A program made the position numbers and the translations under genes. Shown in pieces: positions 17,269 to 27,141 of a DNA stretch of 64,000 nt. Under the pieces are notes generated by a model that made no database searches, was not told the origin of the DNA, and saw nothing but the letters and a program-made list of their open reading frames with translations. The stretch's first letter is position 1, and the number at the start of each line of letters is the position of its first letter. The stretch lies in assembly GCF_056746865.1 (NCBI RefSeq), contig NZ_CM163382.1; one strand, 5' to 3'.

Positions 17269-17838
17269 TCAACTCCGGCTACAGCCAAAATTGCGCTCAC
17301 CGGTGCAGTGAGCTTTGGTATACTCCTTCGCCAGATAGTCAGCACGTTCCAGCACTTGCTGAAAGCCGGTGTCATCATTACGCGCCAGCCACACCGCCGG
17401 CCAGGCCGGAAAATGCACCAGCGTGGCATGGCACCCGACATCCACTCCCAGGGCACTGCACCACGCCTGTTTAATCATCCCGGCCAGAGACTCCGGAGCG
17501 CGGTAATCACCGGCACGACACCAGGTATCCCGGTTGACCAGCAGCATCAGGTGATAGTGTTTTTTACCTTTGCACTCCCCAAACTCCCGGGCCCAGACGT
17601 AATGCAGGGTTGTGGGATGCACGCGTTTACCTTCCCGATGCTTACGTTTCTGGTAAGCGTCGATTCGGGCTTTCAGGGCATTGATGAAGCGGGATATCAC
17701 AGCTGCGTCCGTTGCTGCCGGTACATCCGGGAAACGCAGGTCAACCCGCAATGCCGTCAGGCGGGGATGAACATTCAGTGCGTGCCGCACCGTCTCACGA
17801 ATACGTTGCTGCCAGAAGGGGTTGTATTTGTAGGTCAT
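17269..17838 (-). CDS. YagK/YfjJ-family (inovirus Gp2-like) protein
   Basis: 189 aa from ATG (MTYKYNPFWQQRIRE...); resembles the CP4-57 YfjJ / CP4-6 YagK family. Confidence 0.7.
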   Translation of the reverse strand: MTYKYNPFWQQRIRETVRHALNVHPRLTALRVDLRFPDVPAATDAAVISRFINALKARIDAYQKRKHREGKRVHPTTLHYVWAREFGECKGKKHYHLMLLVNRDTWCRAGDYRAPESLAGMIKQAWCSALGVDVGCHATLVHFPAWPAVWLARNDDTGFQQVLERADYLAKEYTKAHCTGERNFGCSRS

Positions 17839-18037
17839 GGTTAAATCTCCGTATGGTTCATACGGAATAGCCACGTCGTAAAAAATGCGCAGAGTCCCTG
17901 AAGTGACCTCCGGCAGGACACTGTCTCAGGCACTCTGTGATAACCCGAACGGTCGTCTCCGGACTGACGGTTGAATTTTCAGCGTTGTTTTTTTAATGTA
18001 AAAAACCGGTTACGGGTAAGGCTGTGAGGAGGGAGTG

Positions 18038-18238: not shown

Positions 18239-18815
18239 GATAACGGTTCATGTATCCCCTGAGCTGACAGTGTACCGGGTATATTAAGCGTAACCGACAG
18301 GTTCTCCTTCATACCATATTAAATTTTTCCAGGTATTGCCGCTGCCTTATTTCGTCCCATACAGGAAAACTCGTCTGGGTTTCTGACAAATACGCGAAAC
18401 TCACAGCCCCTCAATATCAACCACACGCTGTAAGCCGGTAATACCTGAAAATCAGCCTATTACCGCCCGCGCCTCCGTTACCGAACGCTCAGGTGACCAG
18501 ACTGAAGCCCTGCACGCACTCGTAAAGTTTGCGGTCAGTTCCGTCAGTCGGTGGGCAACCGCAGAGTTACGGGCTTCCAGGTCCACAGGAGTGAGTCTAT
18601 AACGCGTGTGAAAAATCATTTTTTCTGGCGTTGACAGAACACATTACAGGCTGCCACTTACCCGGTGTCCCGCAATACAGCCTTAGTGTTCCGTTATCGG
18701 GGATCCGGACGCACCGCAACAACCGGGGAAGTATTTCTGGTTTAGAGCTGTGTCAAGAGGGATTTCTCAGCCCCTCACTCACCGGCTCAGTCTCAGAGCA
18801 GGAGTGGATTTGCCC

Positions 18816-19721
18816 CTATATTTCCAGACACCTGTTATCACTTAACCCATTACTGGCCCGCTGCCGTAGATATTCCCGTGGCGAGCGATAACCCAGTGCA
18901 CTATGCGGATGCCATTCGTTATAATGCTCGAACGCCTCTGCAAGGTTCTTTGCTGCCGTTAACCCGTCTGGTTTAGGCATGATACTGATGTAGTCACGCT
19001 TTATCGTTTTCACGAAGCTCTCTGCTATGCCGTTACTCTCCGGACTCCGCACCGCCGTGTTCTTCGGTTCAAGCCCCAACATCCGGGCAAACTGCCGTGT
19101 TTCATTAGCCCGGTAGCATGAACCATTATCCGTCAGCCACTCTACTGGAGACGCCGGAAGCTCGTTGCCGAAGCGGCGTTCCACCGCTCCCAGCATTACG
19201 TCCTGTACTGTTTCACTGTCGAAGCCGCCCGTAGTGACTGCCCAGTGCAGTGCCTCACGGTCACAGCAGTCCAGCGCGAACGTGACTCGCAGTTTTTCTC
19301 CGTTATCACAGCGGAACTCGAACCCGTCAGAGCACCATCGTTGATTGCTTTCTTTCACGGCCACTTTGCCAGTATGTGCCCGTTTCGATGGCGGTACAGC
19401 GGTTTTTCGCTCAAGCAACAGCGCATTCTGGCGCATGATCCGGTAAACACGTTTGGCATTGATCGCAGGCATACCATCAAGTTCGGCCTGTCTGCGAAGC
19501 AGCGCCCATACCCGACGATAACCATACGTGGGCAGCTCTCCGATAACATGGTGTATACGGAGAAGCACATCCGTATCATCTGAGTGACGGCTGCGGCGAC
19601 CATCTTTCCAGTCATCGGTTCGTCTGAGAATGACGTGCAACTGCGCACGCGACACCCGGAGACAACGGCTGACTAAGCTTACTCCCCATCCCCGGGCAAT
19701 AAGGGCGCGTGCGCTATCCAC
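18816..19721 (-). CDS. insD: IS2 transposase OrfB
   Basis: 301 aa DDE integrase core. Confidence 0.85.
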
Positions 19722-20044
19722 TTTTTTGCACGCCCGTATTCAACGGCTTCTTTAAGGAGTTCATTTTCCATCGTTTTTTTGCCGAGCAGGCGCTGGAGTT
19801 CTTTAATCTGCTTCATGGCAGCAGCAAGTTCAGAGGCAGGAACGACCTGCTCTCCTGCGGCCACAGCAGTAAGACTTCCCTCCTGGTATTGCTTGCGCCA
19901 GAGAAATAACTGGCTGGCTGCCACACCGTGTTGCCGGGCAACAAGGGAGACCGTCATTCCCGGTTCAAAACTCTGCTGAACAATAGCGATCTTTTCCTGT
20001 GTAGTACGCCGTCTGCGTTTCTCCGGTCCTAAGACATCAATCAT
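19679..20044 (-). CDS. insC: IS2 OrfA
   Basis: 121 aa from [18 protein letters not shown]...; HTH protein. Confidence 0.85.
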
Positions 20045-20696
20045 CTGCTCTCCAATGACTAGTCTAAAAACTAGTATTAAGACTATCACTTATTTAAGTG
20101 ATATTGGTTGTCTGGAGATTCAGGGGGCCAGTCTAGGAGCATTAATACGCTCAGTTCATGTCTTATACAGGAATGGGCACAGGGGGAGCTGGCGTGTCAC
20201 TGCTGATTTTACGCATCAGCGTTCATGTATTTGCACTCTGATACAGAATGCTTCACAGCGCTCTGTTACCGGAGAGATTTACTCTCTTAGCTTACTCTGG
20301 CAAATCCTTTACGTTACTCTCTGATGACTTCTTATATTTATAATACCAATCAGACAGCCTTATCCCATCGGTGATATCAGTCTCCTCCTCGCCAGGAACG
20401 GGCTGACTCACTGTAACCACCTCCGAAAACAACTCTGCAATTATCAGAACGCTAGTTTTCCCCTTGTCTCACGAAAGTCCTCCCTCCTTTATCGCGCGTG
20501 CGTGCGGAAGCATCTTTTCGCAACAACCCCCCGGGATTCCGCTACGGCTCTGCCATCGCAATCCCCCCGTTTATCTCCGGACAGCCACATTCCCGATTAT
20601 TTTTTACGTTTCTCCCCGGTTGTTATGCCAGTGAAGGTGGCGCGCTGTTTTCATGACCACACCGGCTGGTTTAACAACATCCGGAGGAACATTCTC

Positions 20697-22168
<1,472 letters not shown>

Positions 22169-22258
22169 TGACCGTTATCCGTTCACCCGCAGCAGACGTA
22201 ATCTCCGGCCTGCCGGCGGCATTCTGCTGCCTGTTATATCCCCGTGAGGAATATGAAA

Positions 22259-22861
22259 ATGAAACAACAGTATCAGACCCGCTACGAATGGCTCCACGAA
22301 AGCTACCAGAAATGGCTGACCGGCTTCACCCGGCACGCCGTATCCTGGGGCGTGTGTCATCCGAATATCTACTACTTCCATAATCTGACGCCCGGTTGGG
22401 TGTCATTCAATGGTGAAAAACCGGAGATTGCCATCGTACCCCAGAGCCTGCACCGGCTGATTTATGGCCCTGACAAACGGGCCACACCGCCCCTGGATGA
22501 TGATCTGATAGTGAATTTATGCACCAGTGAACATCTGCTGGTTCATCATCCGATGCTGGAAGGCATTCTCCTGTCTGAATGTGAACGTCTGAGGCAGCGT
22601 TCTCTGGCAAATAAACTGATCAGCCTCTTCCGTCAGTTTGGTGGCACGGAGTTGCGCCTCAAACTGGTCTGGCTTTGCTGGCTTGATTTAATGACCGGAA
22701 ACTGCCTTGACGACTGGACGGAGAATCTGAAACGGAAATCAGAAAAAGAGCTGGAGGAATGGATCATCAACCGTCAGAAGCAGAGCGCAGCACTGACGGA
22801 TCTGATGGATCAGTACGTGCTCCTGTCATACCGCACAACGGTTGACGATAAGCGCACCTGA
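22259..22861 (+). CDS. Hypothetical protein (200 aa)
   Basis: ATG with GAGGA SD 8 nt upstream; no recognised domain; lies directly downstream of the original alpA end. Confidence 0.45.
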   Translation: MKQQYQTRYEWLHESYQKWLTGFTRHAVSWGVCHPNIYYFHNLTPGWVSFNGEKPEIAIVPQSLHRLIYGPDKRATPPLDDDLIVNLCTSEHLLVHHPMLEGILLSECERLRQRSLANKLISLFRQFGGTELRLKLVWLCWLDLMTGNCLDDWTENLKRKSEKELEEWIINRQKQSAALTDLMDQYVLLSYRTTVDDKRT

Positions 22862-23083
22862 TGCCAGTTGTTTCAGGGAAGCTGGTATCCGGGCAGGGTG
22901 CCAGGGCTGACTGAACGGCCTGTCTGCCTGCCGTTTCGCTCTCCGTGCGTTCTGTCACACGCTGCACCTGAACGCCGGACTGCGGGCACGCAGACAGGAA
23001 AGTCGCAGGCTGGAACTTCTGACCGGCGGGTATCAGTTATATGCCTGTTGATTCATCACCACCACGCAGCTCCTGAGCTTTAG

Positions 23084-23123
23084 TTCATCACCGATATTCA
23101 TACATCTGAATATCGGTGATGAA
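23084..23123. terminator. Perfect 17-bp inverted repeat with 6-nt loop between convergent genes
   Basis: TTCATCACCGATATTCA-TACATC-TGAATATCGGTGATGAA; no U-tract, so it may be a bidirectional terminator or a protein-binding palindrome. Confidence 0.4.
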
Positions 23124-23182
23124 ATCCCCATAATAATCAATCATCTAAGTCTGAAGCATAATGGAGAAAAACTGCTCACCGG

Positions 23183-24667
23183 TTACTTCGCTCTCAGCTT
23201 ATTGTAGTGATAACCCGAGGTAAAAATACCAGAGACATCAGACAACTTTAAACTGGCTATCTGGGGAAGCAGAACATACATGGTTTTTCCTTCCGGCACG
23301 ACAGAAAGCCTGAACTGAGATTCAAGAATGTTCAGCAATGCGTTCAGTTTTTTCCTGTTTCTGAACCGGCCCGGGCCACACTGGAGAATATAATTTTTCC
23401 TGACACGGGGCGGGCATTCTCCGCGGCACTCCTCAATGAGCCAGTCGAACAGCTCCTCGGCGTCCTTCTGCTGCAGTTCAGATTCATCAGGTAACGCAAA
23501 TAATTTTTTATATTCATCTGTGTACCACGAACTTATTACGACAGCAGACGTCATGATATCGGCAGAGATTTTCCCTTCACCATAGCTGAAATACTGAAAT
23601 AACGCTGCAATTCTTGCAATGTTTTCTGTTTTTTTTGAAACATGTCCCCGAAACGGGCTTAAGGGTCCGGAAGGGGATAAATCCTGCTCCAGAACATTAT
23701 AGTGCTCAATAAATATTTTTTGCGCTTCAGGCGAAAAATGCAGACAATACCGTTCATCCTCACTGGATTTTTCAATACTGCCTCTGGCCAGTTCCATTAA
23801 TCGTTCATGAAATGCCGTTAATGATCCTCCCGGAATCACAGCTCCGTTAATAAAGCGTTTCCCCTGCGTGGTTGCAGGTTTACTGATAAGACAACGGGCA
23901 AGAAAACCACTGTCCCTGGCAACAGAACCTTTTCGCTCCATATATCGGTCAAAAAGACCGGGTTGCACCATGAGGGATAACGTCATTCTGGCATTTTCAA
24001 TCATCTGTTCGGGTTCATTCTTTCTGTCCACAGACAATACAGAGCCATCCCACATTTTGTTAATAAAAGGCAACTCAGACAGGGTATATCCATCAAATAT
24101 AATACCGGCTTCATCTGACATAATACCAACTGAACGCCATTTACCACAAAGCTGATTCTTAATTGCCGCAGTCGTGGCATCATTAAAAATGAATTTATAC
24201 CTCACAGGTTCTTCCGCACTGTTTTTCTGAAGTACTTCCAGTTGTCTGAGGGTTTCTGACTCATCCGCGCCTTTGCGGAGTTCTTTATTCAGTTTTGACA
24301 ACAATGCTTTTTTCTGAGCCTTTAAAAGCTCTTCCTTGTTTTTCCAGACAGCCAGTTCACTTTTGTATCTGGAATATAACTGCATCTCCTGCTGGTACAG
24401 GGGCTTCATTAATAATTTGTCCACTGCGGTTTTTCGTTCTCCGGACTCGGCAAGCGTCAGGAAAAAAAGAGAGACCGGCCCCCGCAGTGTATTCAGTCTG
24501 CAGACATCAATCAGATTCTGGCAGACAAGTGAAACAGCGCCCAGGGCAGACGCTGCCACAAGCCCAAGGGGAGCCTGCGTAATTTGCTGAGCTTCAATAA
24601 CGGCATCACGAATGAGTGGAGGCAGCGAACTCAGGGGAAACTCATCACAAGGCTGACCGAATGACAT
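23183..24667 (-). CDS. DUF3987-like protein (YfjI-like)
   Basis: 494 aa from MSFGQPCDEF...; resembles CP4-57 YfjI-type proteins; SD GAGG. Confidence 0.65.
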   Translation of the reverse strand: MSFGQPCDEFPLSSLPPLIRDAVIEAQQITQAPLGLVAASALGAVSLVCQNLIDVCRLNTLRGPVSLFFLTLAESGERKTAVDKLLMKPLYQQEMQLYSRYKSELAVWKNKEELLKAQKKALLSKLNKELRKGADESETLRQLEVLQKNSAEEPVRYKFIFNDATTAAIKNQLCGKWRSVGIMSDEAGIIFDGYTLSELPFINKMWDGSVLSVDRKNEPEQMIENARMTLSLMVQPGLFDRYMERKGSVARDSGFLARCLISKPATTQGKRFINGAVIPGGSLTAFHERLMELARGSIEKSSEDERYCLHFSPEAQKIFIEHYNVLEQDLSPSGPLSPFRGHVSKKTENIARIAALFQYFSYGEGKISADIMTSAVVISSWYTDEYKKLFALPDESELQQKDAEELFDWLIEECRGECPPRVRKNYILQCGPGRFRNRKKLNALLNILESQFRLSVVPEGKTMYVLLPQIASLKLSDVSGIFTSGYHYNKLRAK

Positions 24668-25897
24668 AGTAACCTCACTATACACAGATATAAAAGCACT
24701 GCAATTCTGGCTATTAATAGCAAAAATAGCAGTCAAATCAATATGAGGTAAAATTTTTTGTTGATTTAATGGTTAAATAATAACCACAGTGTATTTTGCT
24801 GCTGAAGAAAGACAAAATGAATCTGTGTGTCCCCTCCTTCCCTTCGGAGCACATCCACTATTCAAATTTTACACAACCACGTACGAACAAAAAGCATCAT
24901 CCCGGGTATTGCAGATACCGGTTTCCTGCCGGGAAGAATCATAAACAGAACACCGGGAATAACGCCTTCAGGAATCACCCCCCCTCCTGAAGAAGAATAA
25001 AATAAAGAAGACTACAGTTCCTGCACTGAATGCTGAGTACAATATTTTATGGACAGGATGACATTTTTATAAATAACAAAAACCATTTAATACTGATACA
25101 TCAATAAAATACTTCTTCCCTGCTGACACAGATAAAATGCACCATTTTTTCTTCAAATACTTCTGTATAATCGCCAGCCAATGATGAGAATGGATTAAAA
25201 TAACACTTCTTCGACAAACACAAAAACAGCCTTCATTTTACATCATCATCCAGTTTCAGTTAACCCCGGACGAGCGACAGTGTTTCAGTACAGGAATTAA
25301 AAGCCAGCTTTTGCTCAGTAAAACACACTCAACTAATAATATCTCAGCAGATATTATCCTGACCAGGACACCTCACATTACTGAATTCTCTTCCGACAGT
25401 ATCACTGCACAAATAAAAAAGAACGGGATAAATATTCAGACCGGAAGAATGGTGTCACAAAAGCATTTAATCATTACGCATGACCAGGAAGGGAAACACT
25501 TAACCACATGGTATCAACAGATATCATTACGTGTGCACTCTTATAAAAAACACACAGAAGAAGTAAGATAATTATAAACGTAAATTTAATATCTCCCACT
25601 GACATCTCCCCCACAATACACTAAAAAATACTCACAGCAGTAAACACAGATACACCTGATAATCATACAGCCGATAAATATTTTCCCCTTTACGGAGAAA
25701 TCAGCCTGCTGTTTAACAATAACGGCGTATTTTCATGGAAGGAGATCACCCAGTAACGGATAAGTCCTGATCTCCTTCATGTTAATACGCAACAATCCCA
25801 TCGATTCAAAACAATTTCAGACAGATATTATCTCCGTGAATCCCCCGCCACCTTTCCGGTGCGCGGGGTTTTGTCTTTTTTCACCGGGAATACATGT

Positions 25898-26884: not shown

Positions 26885-26928
26885 AAACGATCGATAAAAC
26901 AGGTATCGATCGTTGCTATCGATCGTTT
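26885..26928 (+). promoter_or_regulatory. Ag43 phase-variation switch (three GATC sites, OxyR/Dam)
   Basis: ACGATCGATAAAACAGGTATCGATCGTTGCTATCGATCGTTTAT about 220 bp upstream of flu start; GATC at about 26889, 26908, 26921. Confidence 0.7.
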
Positions 26929-27141
26929 ATAGTGGTTAATGGTCTGCGAAAAGGCAGCTGAATCTCTTCATCATGCAGAACGGAATTGCACACAACGGAC
27001 TGATACTTCTCTGGCGGATGAGAGAGGGGAAGCATTTATGTCCGGGAAAAACCACTTTATCTGAGCATGCTGTTTTGTACCTGCCGGTATCCACATTTGT
27101 GGGTACCGGCTTTTTTATTCACCCTCTGTAAGGAAAAGCTG

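Follow-up and report, generated by a model that had tools for sequence, protein, structure and literature searches.

The DNA window analysed here, 64,000 nucleotides of contig NZ_CM163382.1 (assembly GCF_056746865.1), carries at positions 22,259 to 24,667 a 200-aa open reading frame (ORF200) which converges, across a perfect 17-bp inverted repeat, on a gene for a 494-aa protein of the DUF3987/YfjI family. With moderate confidence in the reading as a whole, we interpret this segment as a junction in an integrative genomic island of the CP4-57/CP4-44 type, where alpA and ORF200, a member of the Aec62 family, would form a core pair on the left and a variable cargo slot would follow on the right. 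The conserved unit is alpA plus ORF200 and not ORF200 plus yfjI, the pair that the original prediction, made from the sequence, had placed in a rearranged or novel P4/PICI-like regulatory-replication module. Every sequence feature listed in that prediction is present, and its interpretation is partly supported.

According to this reading, ORF200 would normally be transcribed together with alpA through a conserved structured spacer and would most likely belong to the AlpA-controlled programme of the island, a switch for excision, replication or transfer, rather than to its cargo. The slot is here occupied by an inverted YfjI cassette, which would have been passed on along with the 3' remnant of an earlier, paralogous Aec62-family gene that once converged on yfjI. 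The palindrome, situated in the old convergent gap, would most likely act as a 3' stem-loop of the two convergent transcripts through pausing, inefficient termination or protection against 3' exonucleases. The insertion sequence (IS) ISEc31 has cut the 3' end of alpA and uncoupled ORF200 from it.

The conserved unit of alpA and ORF200

Loci with ORF200 homologues were surveyed in one-genome-per-species contigs (44 loci) and, for further loci, by exact protein look-up. The 44 loci derive from Yersinia, Salmonella, Hafnia, Serratia, Klebsiella, Providencia, Photorhabdus, Pectobacterium and others. In 46 loci alpA (68 aa) is located directly upstream of the ORF200 homologue on the same strand with a gap of 63-107 nt, and a conserved AAGGAA Shine-Dalgarno sequence precedes the homologue. 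An insertion separates the two genes in three further loci, the window's strain (L002) among them, one locus has no detectable alpA and two loci are situated at contig ends. A Gp2/YfjJ-like gene is often found directly 3' of ORF200 or 5' of alpA.

In contrast to alpA, yfjI is found within 10 kb of ORF200 in E. coli loci only and in none of the 44 non-E. coli loci. The adjacency to alpA, set against the restriction of yfjI to E. coli, indicates that ORF200 sits in the slot that is held by yfjI in CP4-57. No sigma-70-like promoter was found in the spacer between alpA and ORF200, and the two genes are presumably co-transcribed.

A protein family found only in Enterobacterales

ORF200 is a real conserved protein-coding gene. 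Its start is credible, with GAGGAA 7 nt before the ATG, and it coincides with a coding sequence (CDS) annotated by the NCBI Prokaryotic Genome Annotation Pipeline (PGAP), WP_000813451.1. The designation as an orphan does not apply, as a search of 5.8 billion proteins recovered 189 homologues at E<=1e-3 in many genera and as the 44 syntenic loci extend across the Enterobacterales. Nearly all full-length homologues comprise 174-200 aa and originate from E. coli, Salmonella, Klebsiella, Yersinia, Hafnia, Cronobacter, Serratia and Pantoea; phmmer, run exhaustively on 1.84 billion representatives, returned only the protein's own family, down to ~27-35% identity. The median dN/dS of 0.09 (65 pairs) demonstrates strong purifying selection on the family. 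Aec62-family genes were found only in Enterobacterales, essentially not in phages (one 3.6-kb 'phage' fragment) and essentially not on true plasmids, with only mislabelled chromosome-sized 'plasmid' records and a few small records among the matches.

The family name is uncurated and stems from UniProt only, and ORF200 is assigned to the family by significant full-length sequence and fold similarity to proteins so named, such as Q5K5T0 'Aec62' (Foldseek against AFDB50: 98% identity, E 3.5e-29, TM 0.94). The name Aec62 has also been given to an island open reading frame in a survey of Shiga toxin-producing E. coli (STEC) islands. The AlphaFold2 model is confident (pLDDT 87.5, pTM 0.86) and shows a single domain composed of an N-terminal helix, a beta-hairpin and a helical bundle. 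Invariant are Y16, Q17, G31, P61, G102, E107, C108, R110, C140, W141, W153, W168 and Y186.

That ORF200 lacks a recognisable domain, as originally noted, was borne out by all searches. No match was obtained against Pfam with the single sequence and all 26 alignment members, nor against NCBIfam, PHROGs and PADLOC with distant members included; the PADLOC 2.0 hidden Markov models yielded 0 families, the sequence-profile search of the PDB was negative and Foldseek gave no match in BFVD. The check by remote homology and structure prediction that had been proposed therefore delivered a confident fold, and no relatives outside the family. A relationship to K-12 AlpA, YfjH, YfjI or YfjJ was considered and discarded, as no similarity was found.

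Within E. coli at least four deeply divergent Aec62 clades exist, with ~98%, 62%, 36% and 30% identity to ORF200. Megablast with the segment from the end of alpA to the palindrome (22129-23182) detected a median of 2 and up to 6 matching places per genome, which suggests island-specific Aec62 alleles in co-resident islands.

A structured element in the alpA-ORF200 spacer

Nucleotide conservation falls after the alpA stop codon, rises for the last ~60 nt before ORF200, where it attains the level of coding sequence, and collapses at the ORF200 stop codon. The conserved part of the spacer contains an inner hairpin of the UCCGG-loop-CCGGA type, the closing pair of which covaries (GC 16, CG 10, AU 1, UA 1, UG 1). 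Around it an outer stem is formed, which in the window consists of 8 bp (GCAGCAGA / TCTGCTGC) followed by CTGTTATAT. The arms of the outer stem are clade-specific, with GCAGCAGA/UCUGCUGC, UGACAGGCAG/CUGCCUGUCA and CAGCCAG/CUGGCUG among others. Since the sequences of the left arm cannot be aligned, only the inner 4-bp hairpin emerged from RNAalifold (MAFFT alignment) and the outer stem was tested per sequence: in 19 of 29 distinct sequences the left flank pairs with the right one better than in 500 shuffles (p<0.05).

The element is intact in the window, downstream of the IS, and orthologous spacers are present in L001, L005 and L010-L053. A simple scan calls a terminator-like structure at 22215-22231, which is part of the element; the U-tract is weak and not kept in all clades. 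A comparison of the spacer element and the palindrome with Rfam 15 produced only chance-level matches (E 0.3-0.5, bit scores below half the gathering score) and thus no family for either at the gathering threshold.

These features make the spacer element a candidate attenuator, terminator or regulator binding site. In Pseudomonas aeruginosa, AlpA is a processive antiterminator which lets transcription continue past a terminator located beyond its loading site (PMC9371919), and with this precedent AlpA-dependent read-through at the spacer becomes a testable idea. The arrangement resembles AlpA/alpBCDE of P. aeruginosa in that a small AlpA is encoded upstream of genes which lie behind a terminator-like hairpin (PMC9371919); it differs in the weak U-tract of the spacer, and E. 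coli AlpA is known as an activator. By analogy, the stem-loop between alpA and ORF200 may open the question of antitermination in enterobacteria as one that can be tested.

A replaceable cargo slot adjacent to the core pair

The homology to E. coli islands with other cargo, such as the one of Nissle, ends at 22881-22884, ~20 nt past the ORF200 stop codon, and resumes at 25804, just before the gene for a YeeP-like GTPase. In Nissle the slot is filled by a gene for a 305-aa hypothetical protein (L008, 10935-11852). Genes for a ~305-aa hypothetical protein that lacks Pfam domains regularly accompany the YeeP-like GTPase gene (L005, L006, L017, L034 and others) and represent a further conserved, uncharacterised component of these islands.

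In the other genera (L011-L053), 22 of the 30 large open reading frames located within 10 kb downstream match defence proteins with very low E-values. The matches include GajA/GajB (Gabija), ZacB/C, type I restriction-modification subunits, PDC-M27C, PD-Lambda-4, DndD and Ppl, and furthermore HamB (Hachiman), Dsr1, PDC-M54A, SngA (Shango), a type II methyltransferase and BrxC (BREX). Precomputed Pfam contexts additionally show dnd and BREX clusters in Yersinia, Pantoea and Klebsiella. The slot 3' of alpA-ORF200(-Gp2) is a defence hotspot bordered by the alpA-ORF200 pair.

The DNA between ORF200 and the palindrome is not plain spacer. The palindrome lies between the two convergent genes as described, and the 222 nt from the ORF200 stop codon to the palindrome include a relic which matches the last ~100 nt of the gene for a 190-aa paralogue in strain U13A (blastn 73% over 105 nt, E 2e-16). 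By tblastn the relic frame reads ARRQESRRLELLTGGYQLYAC against ARKREKRELELMIDEYLLYAC in U13A, with the relic stop codon TGA at 23048-23050. This match identifies the GC-rich 'intergenic' DNA as the stump of an older Aec62 paralogue.

U13A also shows what the ancestral arrangement may have looked like. An intact ORF190, 36% identical to ORF200, converges in this strain on a 91%-identical yfjI across 120 nt, and this gap contains a different, 9-bp GC-rich hairpin at the equivalent position. AlpA (93%), Gp2 (92%), YfjI (91%) and the GTPase (98%) are closely similar between U13A and the window, while the identity of the ORF200 counterpart amounts to only 36%. The spacers of U13A and strain 7/2 are similar up to TTCTGCTGC and then diverge. 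Judged from these sequences, a replacement of alleles by recombination at the position of ORF200 is likely. An ORF190-type gene converging on yfjI would have been ancestral and its reading frame would have been replaced by an ORF200-type allele, with the left crossover near the right arm of the spacer element, as suggested by the divergence of the two spacers after TTCTGCTGC, and the right crossover within the old reading frame.

The remainder of the cassette, 24668-25803, consists of 1.1 kb of DNA with 31-40% GC, and no relic of alpA or another gene was detected within this AT-rich DNA upstream of yfjI. An imperfect palindrome at 24698-24733 (22-nt arms, 86% complementary, ACTGCAATTCTGGCTATTAATAGCAAAAATAGCAGT), 31-66 nt upstream of the yfjI start, is a possible operator.

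The 17-bp palindrome

As initially described, the repeat is perfect, with 17/17 positions complementary, and has no U-tract on either strand. It is located 33 nt after the relic stop codon and 59 nt after the yfjI stop codon. By chance, perfect inverted repeats of 17 bp with short loops are expected ~1e-4 times per 64 kb. Folded as RNA it attains -25.4 and -28.1 kcal/mol on the two strands (z ~ -7.2), and 0 of 200 shuffles were as stable. The stem contains 6 G+C among 17 positions (35%), T or A runs are missing from the flanks GAGCTTTAG and ATCCCCATAA, and the palindrome is not among the calls of the terminator scan. A stable stem-loop between convergent genes is reminiscent of intrinsic terminators and of stabilisers of the repetitive extragenic palindrome (REP) type, from which the palindrome differs in the GC content of its stem, in the missing U- and A-tracts and in being single-copy and not dispersed.

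In total, 1,461 copies were found in 1,178 genomes with a median of 1 and a maximum of 3 per genome, always in the context of the yfjI cassette, which itself is covered >=80% in 1,826 genomes. One copy is present in the window and none was found on plasmids. With this copy number and a single context, a dispersed repeat family (REP or bacterial interspersed mosaic elements, miniature inverted-repeat transposable elements) could be dismissed; a common repeat family was the finding that would have spoken against a connection to the neighbouring genes. A recombination breakpoint at the palindrome was equally discarded, as the breaks are found at 22881, 23032 and 23258-23267 instead.

The palindrome is specific to one cassette allele, and the sister allele has another hairpin at the same place. 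This coincidence of position is the reason why a 3' stem-loop for the convergent transcripts is the preferred reading. In STEC1575 a change of C to T in one arm is matched by a change of G to A opposite to it in the other, which preserves the pairing.

Alternatively, the palindrome might be a site at the DNA level, namely the operator of a dimer, a hairpin for the Gp2-like HUH protein (ori- or oriT-like) or the core of a tyrosine recombinase site (17-6-17). The perfect symmetry, the AT-rich stem, the 6-bp asymmetric spacer and the symmetric change of both arms in one variant would be in line with such a site, and the island encodes both a Gp2/REP_ORF2-G2P-like protein and the helicase-like YfjI. 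Related islands which keep alpA, ORF200 and Gp2 nevertheless miss the palindrome, no breakpoint of homology coincides with it and a variant with a T/T mismatch breaks the symmetry. We regard a DNA-level site as very unlikely.

Relation to CP4-57, P4-like satellites and other islands

YfjI matches Pfam DUF3987 (PF13148) over nearly the entire model (positions 1-363/364, E 1.6e-95), in agreement with the original assignment, and PHROG 2373 ('DNA helicase') with E 5.5e-82; its full-length identity to K-12 YfjI is 53%. The Walker B-like motif GIMSDEAG (MSDE) is present, and the Walker A-like motif TLAESGERKT carries R where G is canonical, a deviation that is invariant in three YfjI proteins. The match to PADLOC 2.0 is at chance level (E 0.028). 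DUF3987 has been demonstrated to be a 5'-3' helicase in the PriCT-DUF3987 protein AgaPH, the partner of a primase-polymerase on mobile elements that carry prokaryotic Argonaute genes (PMC11724360). YfjI differs from AgaPH by the absence of a PriCT domain, of an adjacent primase-polymerase and of any neighbouring primase and by its deviant Walker A sequence AESGERKT. By family membership, YfjI may be the replication helicase of the island.

The locus shares with CP4-57 the same three protein families, the AlpA regulator, a DUF3987 YfjI (53%) and a Gp2/YfjJ-like protein (36%), and it belongs to the same kind of island with genes for the GTPase, DUF932, antirestriction, RadC/JAB and CbtA/CbeA proteins. 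In CP4-57, a cryptic prophage of K-12, alpA is followed by yfjI and yfjJ and subsequently by the defence cargo abpBA and rnlAB. The E. coli AlpA is reportedly an activator of intA and of excision. Order and orientation differ between the two, as was initially recognized. In CP4-57 yfjI is the first gene after alpA and the three genes share one direction, whereas in the window the gene order is Gp2 (-), alpA (+), ORF200 (+), yfjI (-): the Aec62-family gene occupies the position after alpA, yfjI lies inverted within the cargo cassette, and the Gp2-like gene, encoded on the opposite strand, is found 2.8 kb upstream of alpA. The homologues of alpA, yfjI and yfjJ, all inside 7.5 kb of the window, are thus neither adjacent nor co-directional. 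No Aec62 homologue is present in K-12 CP4-57 in the region compared.

With respect to more distant relatives, tmRNA-associated islands of Pseudomonas possess a core of IntY, AlpA, an inovirus Gp2-like protein and RadC together with defence cargo (PMC12595487). The combination of a conserved core with variable defence cargo follows the same logic as in the enterobacterial loci surveyed here, with the differences that host clade and integration site are others and that no Aec62-family gene has been reported there (PMC12595487).

A likeness to P4-like satellites and phage-inducible chromosomal islands (PICIs) is given by the small regulator of the AlpA/Vis type and by the association of the island with a tRNA gene. 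We take the island integrase to be of the P4 type. In contrast to those elements the island is large and mosaic, and ORF200 has no PHROG match and belongs to a family that is essentially absent from phage genomes. The P4 hallmarks (alpha primase-helicase, psu/sid/delta) are not annotated across the 64-kb region in the matching genome, a statement about the annotation that leaves aside cos, for which no search was made. Equally, no terS/rpp or capsid genes are annotated in the 64-kb region, and of the features of a PICI (a compact element of 10-15 kb with int, alpA, pri-rep and packaging or capsid redirection) only alpA is present.

These comparisons bear on the proposal that ORF200 and YfjI constitute one rearranged regulation-replication module of the P4/PICI type with the palindrome as a shared bidirectional terminator. 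The proximity of the alpA, yfjI and yfjJ homologues would fit such a module, as would the recurrence of the convergent Aec62/yfjI pairing with two very different alleles, each with a hairpin in the gap, and the demonstrated role of DUF3987 as a helicase in replication modules of mobile elements (PMC11724360), with which the PHROG annotation agrees. Against it stands the absence of yfjI within 10 kb of ORF200 not only from all 44 non-E. coli loci, but also from many E. coli islands including that of Nissle; moreover, as far as the annotation goes and cos apart, primase, psu/sid/delta, terS and capsid genes are missing and the palindrome has neither a GC-rich stem nor flanking A/T tracts. The proposal of such a module is therefore considered quite improbable.

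Arguments against the reading and alternatives for ORF200 and the palindrome

Several observations weigh against the reading of an alpA-coupled core gene followed by a gap with a functional 3' stem-loop. The life-cycle role of ORF200 is argued from its position, and the structural neighbours detected by Foldseek in AFDB50 belong only to its own family, with spurious names ('malate transporter', 'secretoglobin'), and offer no function. The alleles of ORF200 have been exchanged independently of the neighbouring genes, which argues against a tight co-evolving partnership with the products of the latter. Such exchange between near-identical flanks leaves room for an outward-directed function. As to the palindrome, a canonical intrinsic or bidirectional terminator is rejected by the 35% GC stem and the missing U- and A-tracts. 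Its near-invariance reflects the youth of the segment and not selection, and of the metagenome contigs 65/66 have the perfect form, with the pairing broken by an unpaired T/T in the remaining one.

The first group of these observations leads to an alternative in which ORF200 is an outward-directed, fast-diversifying effector, for anti-defence or exclusion or as a sensor directed at a phage, a plasmid or a host factor. It would account for the divergent alleles (~98%, 62%, 36% and 30%) at the same E. coli slot between near-identical flanks and for the signs of allele replacement next to a defence hotspot, and the invariant polar residues Y16, Q17, E107, C108, R110 and C140 could form an active or binding site. 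It is less compatible with the lack of a PADLOC match, with the strong purifying selection inside clades and with the constant place as the first gene after alpA instead of in the variable slot. An effector of this type is thus judged unlikely, with some plausibility left to it, and a part in the AlpA-controlled programme remains the preferred assignment of ORF200.

The second group is relevant for the possibility that the palindrome has no function at all, arose recently as a by-product (of strand switching on a hairpin template, for instance) and is carried along with a young cassette. The 91-nt query surrounding the palindrome is matched >=99% in 985 of the 1,178 carrier genomes; as the segment is young, conservation of the palindrome carries little information. 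That the palindrome is allele-specific and not a canonical terminator points in the same direction. The different hairpin of the sister allele at the same position suggests, however, that a stem-loop is wanted there, and the structure is very stable. Absence of any function is doubtful and still deserves appreciable weight, and for the palindrome itself the 3' stem-loop favoured here is only slightly more likely than a neutral origin through hairpin-templated mutation.

The locus in the window's strain and further features

The coordinates of the features are collected in Table 1. Several complete E. coli chromosomes contain the 2.7-kb segment with 100% identity, and it is covered >=80% in 1,165 of 5,426 complete E. 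coli genomes; PGAP has already annotated it with a 'hypothetical protein' and a 'YfjI family protein'. What had been considered a novel or rearranged variant is an ordinary, common configuration of CP4-57/CP4-44-type islands.

Table 1. Positions of the features of the alpA-ORF200-yfjI locus in the window
Feature	Position	Strand	Basis
Inovirus Gp2 / YfjJ-like protein	17269..17874	-	36% identity to K-12 YfjJ
alpA-family gene (Phage_AlpA / excisionase helix-turn-helix), 3' end replaced by IS sequence	20697..20909	+	PGAP CDS in identical strain
ISEc31 (IS3 family), 1258 bp, between alpA and ORF200	20871..22128	-	comparison with strain 7/2
Structured spacer element, alpA-ORF200	22189..22230	+	conservation profile, alignments, per-sequence folds, flank-complementarity test
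ORF200, Aec62-family protein, 200 aa	22259..22861	+	identical to PGAP CDS WP_000813451.1 ('hypothetical protein')
Variable cargo cassette	22882..25803	.	homology breakpoints against islands with other cargo
Decayed 3' relic of paralogous Aec62-family gene	22955..23059	+	blastn, tblastn, alignment
Perfect 17-bp inverted repeat, 6-nt loop	arms 23084-23100 / 23107-23123	.	
YfjI-family protein, DUF3987, 494 aa	23183..24667	-	Pfam; PGAP 'YfjI family protein'
AT-rich non-coding DNA 5' of yfjI, part of the cassette, 1.1 kb	24668..25803	.	

The earlier inference that ORF200 is located directly 3' of the original alpA end and that the IS3-family element is a later insertion proved correct, with the uninterrupted strain 7/2 as the reference, against which the TGG duplication flanking ISEc31 is seen at 20868-20870 and 22129-22131. 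Native alpA, intact in strain 7/2, encodes 68 aa; in the window its last 10 codons are replaced by 12 IS-derived codons. The resulting AlpA has a weak match to the excisionase domain TIGR01764, under the curated cut-off, and alpA orthologues match Pfam PF05930. ISEc31 places 1.26 kb between ORF200 and the alpA promoter. A second IS3-family element, an IS2-like copy of 1330 bp with a 5-bp duplication (18805-20134), is located 562 nt upstream of alpA and is missing from the otherwise identical CFSAN061770. With these two copies alpA is bracketed by IS elements in the window's strain, and through their insertions the AlpA-ORF200 circuit is probably disabled or rewired there.

The surroundings on the island comprise genes for Ag43, the YeeP-like GTPase, DUF932, antirestriction, RadC and CbtA/CbeA proteins and the fec operon, and the 64-kb window as a whole is a mosaic of fec, sgc, yjh, nan and fimB/E genes with many IS elements. 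Its gene content presumably is that of the K-12 leuX/KpLE2 region. At 42507-42545 the window contains another perfect 17-bp inverted repeat, with a loop of 5 nt (ATACTGTAAAGCCGGAG / CTCCGGCTTTACAGTAT); by the coordinates of CFSAN061770 it maps into yjhG (xylonate dehydratase), which is unusual for such a long perfect hairpin. Among RNA families, Rfam recognizes isrC (150 bits) at 21938-22060 on the minus strand inside ISEc31 and the IS102 RNA (73 bits) at 26887-27123 on the plus strand between the GTPase gene and the Ag43 gene, 5' of the latter.

Implications for CP4-57/CP4-44-type islands

As far as the literature is searchable, neither Aec62 as an alpA-coupled core gene without known fold, nor the conserved structured spacer before it, nor the fixed border of the slot for defence cargo has been described. 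A far-reaching proposal, to which we assign only a small probability, would be that alpA, the structured spacer and the Aec62 gene together constitute an undescribed switch of Enterobacterales islands. RNA polymerase modified by AlpA would read through the spacer stem-loop to the Aec62 gene, the Gp2-like gene and possibly the defence cargo, in the manner of P. aeruginosa AlpA at alpBCDE. Aec62, which combines a new fold with invariant Glu-Cys/Cys residues, would as the effector either commit the island to excision, replication or transfer or sense a phage or plasmid that enters the cell.

Of modest interest are the Aec62 family and the spacer element; the arrangement as such is ordinary. Among the islands of the CP4-57/CP4-44 type are those which carry Ag43, CbtA/CbeA and fitness genes in E. 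coli strains both pathogenic and probiotic, such as Nissle 1917. Aec62 is a candidate for a missing component in the control of these islands, and searches for defence cargo could use the family as a practical landmark.

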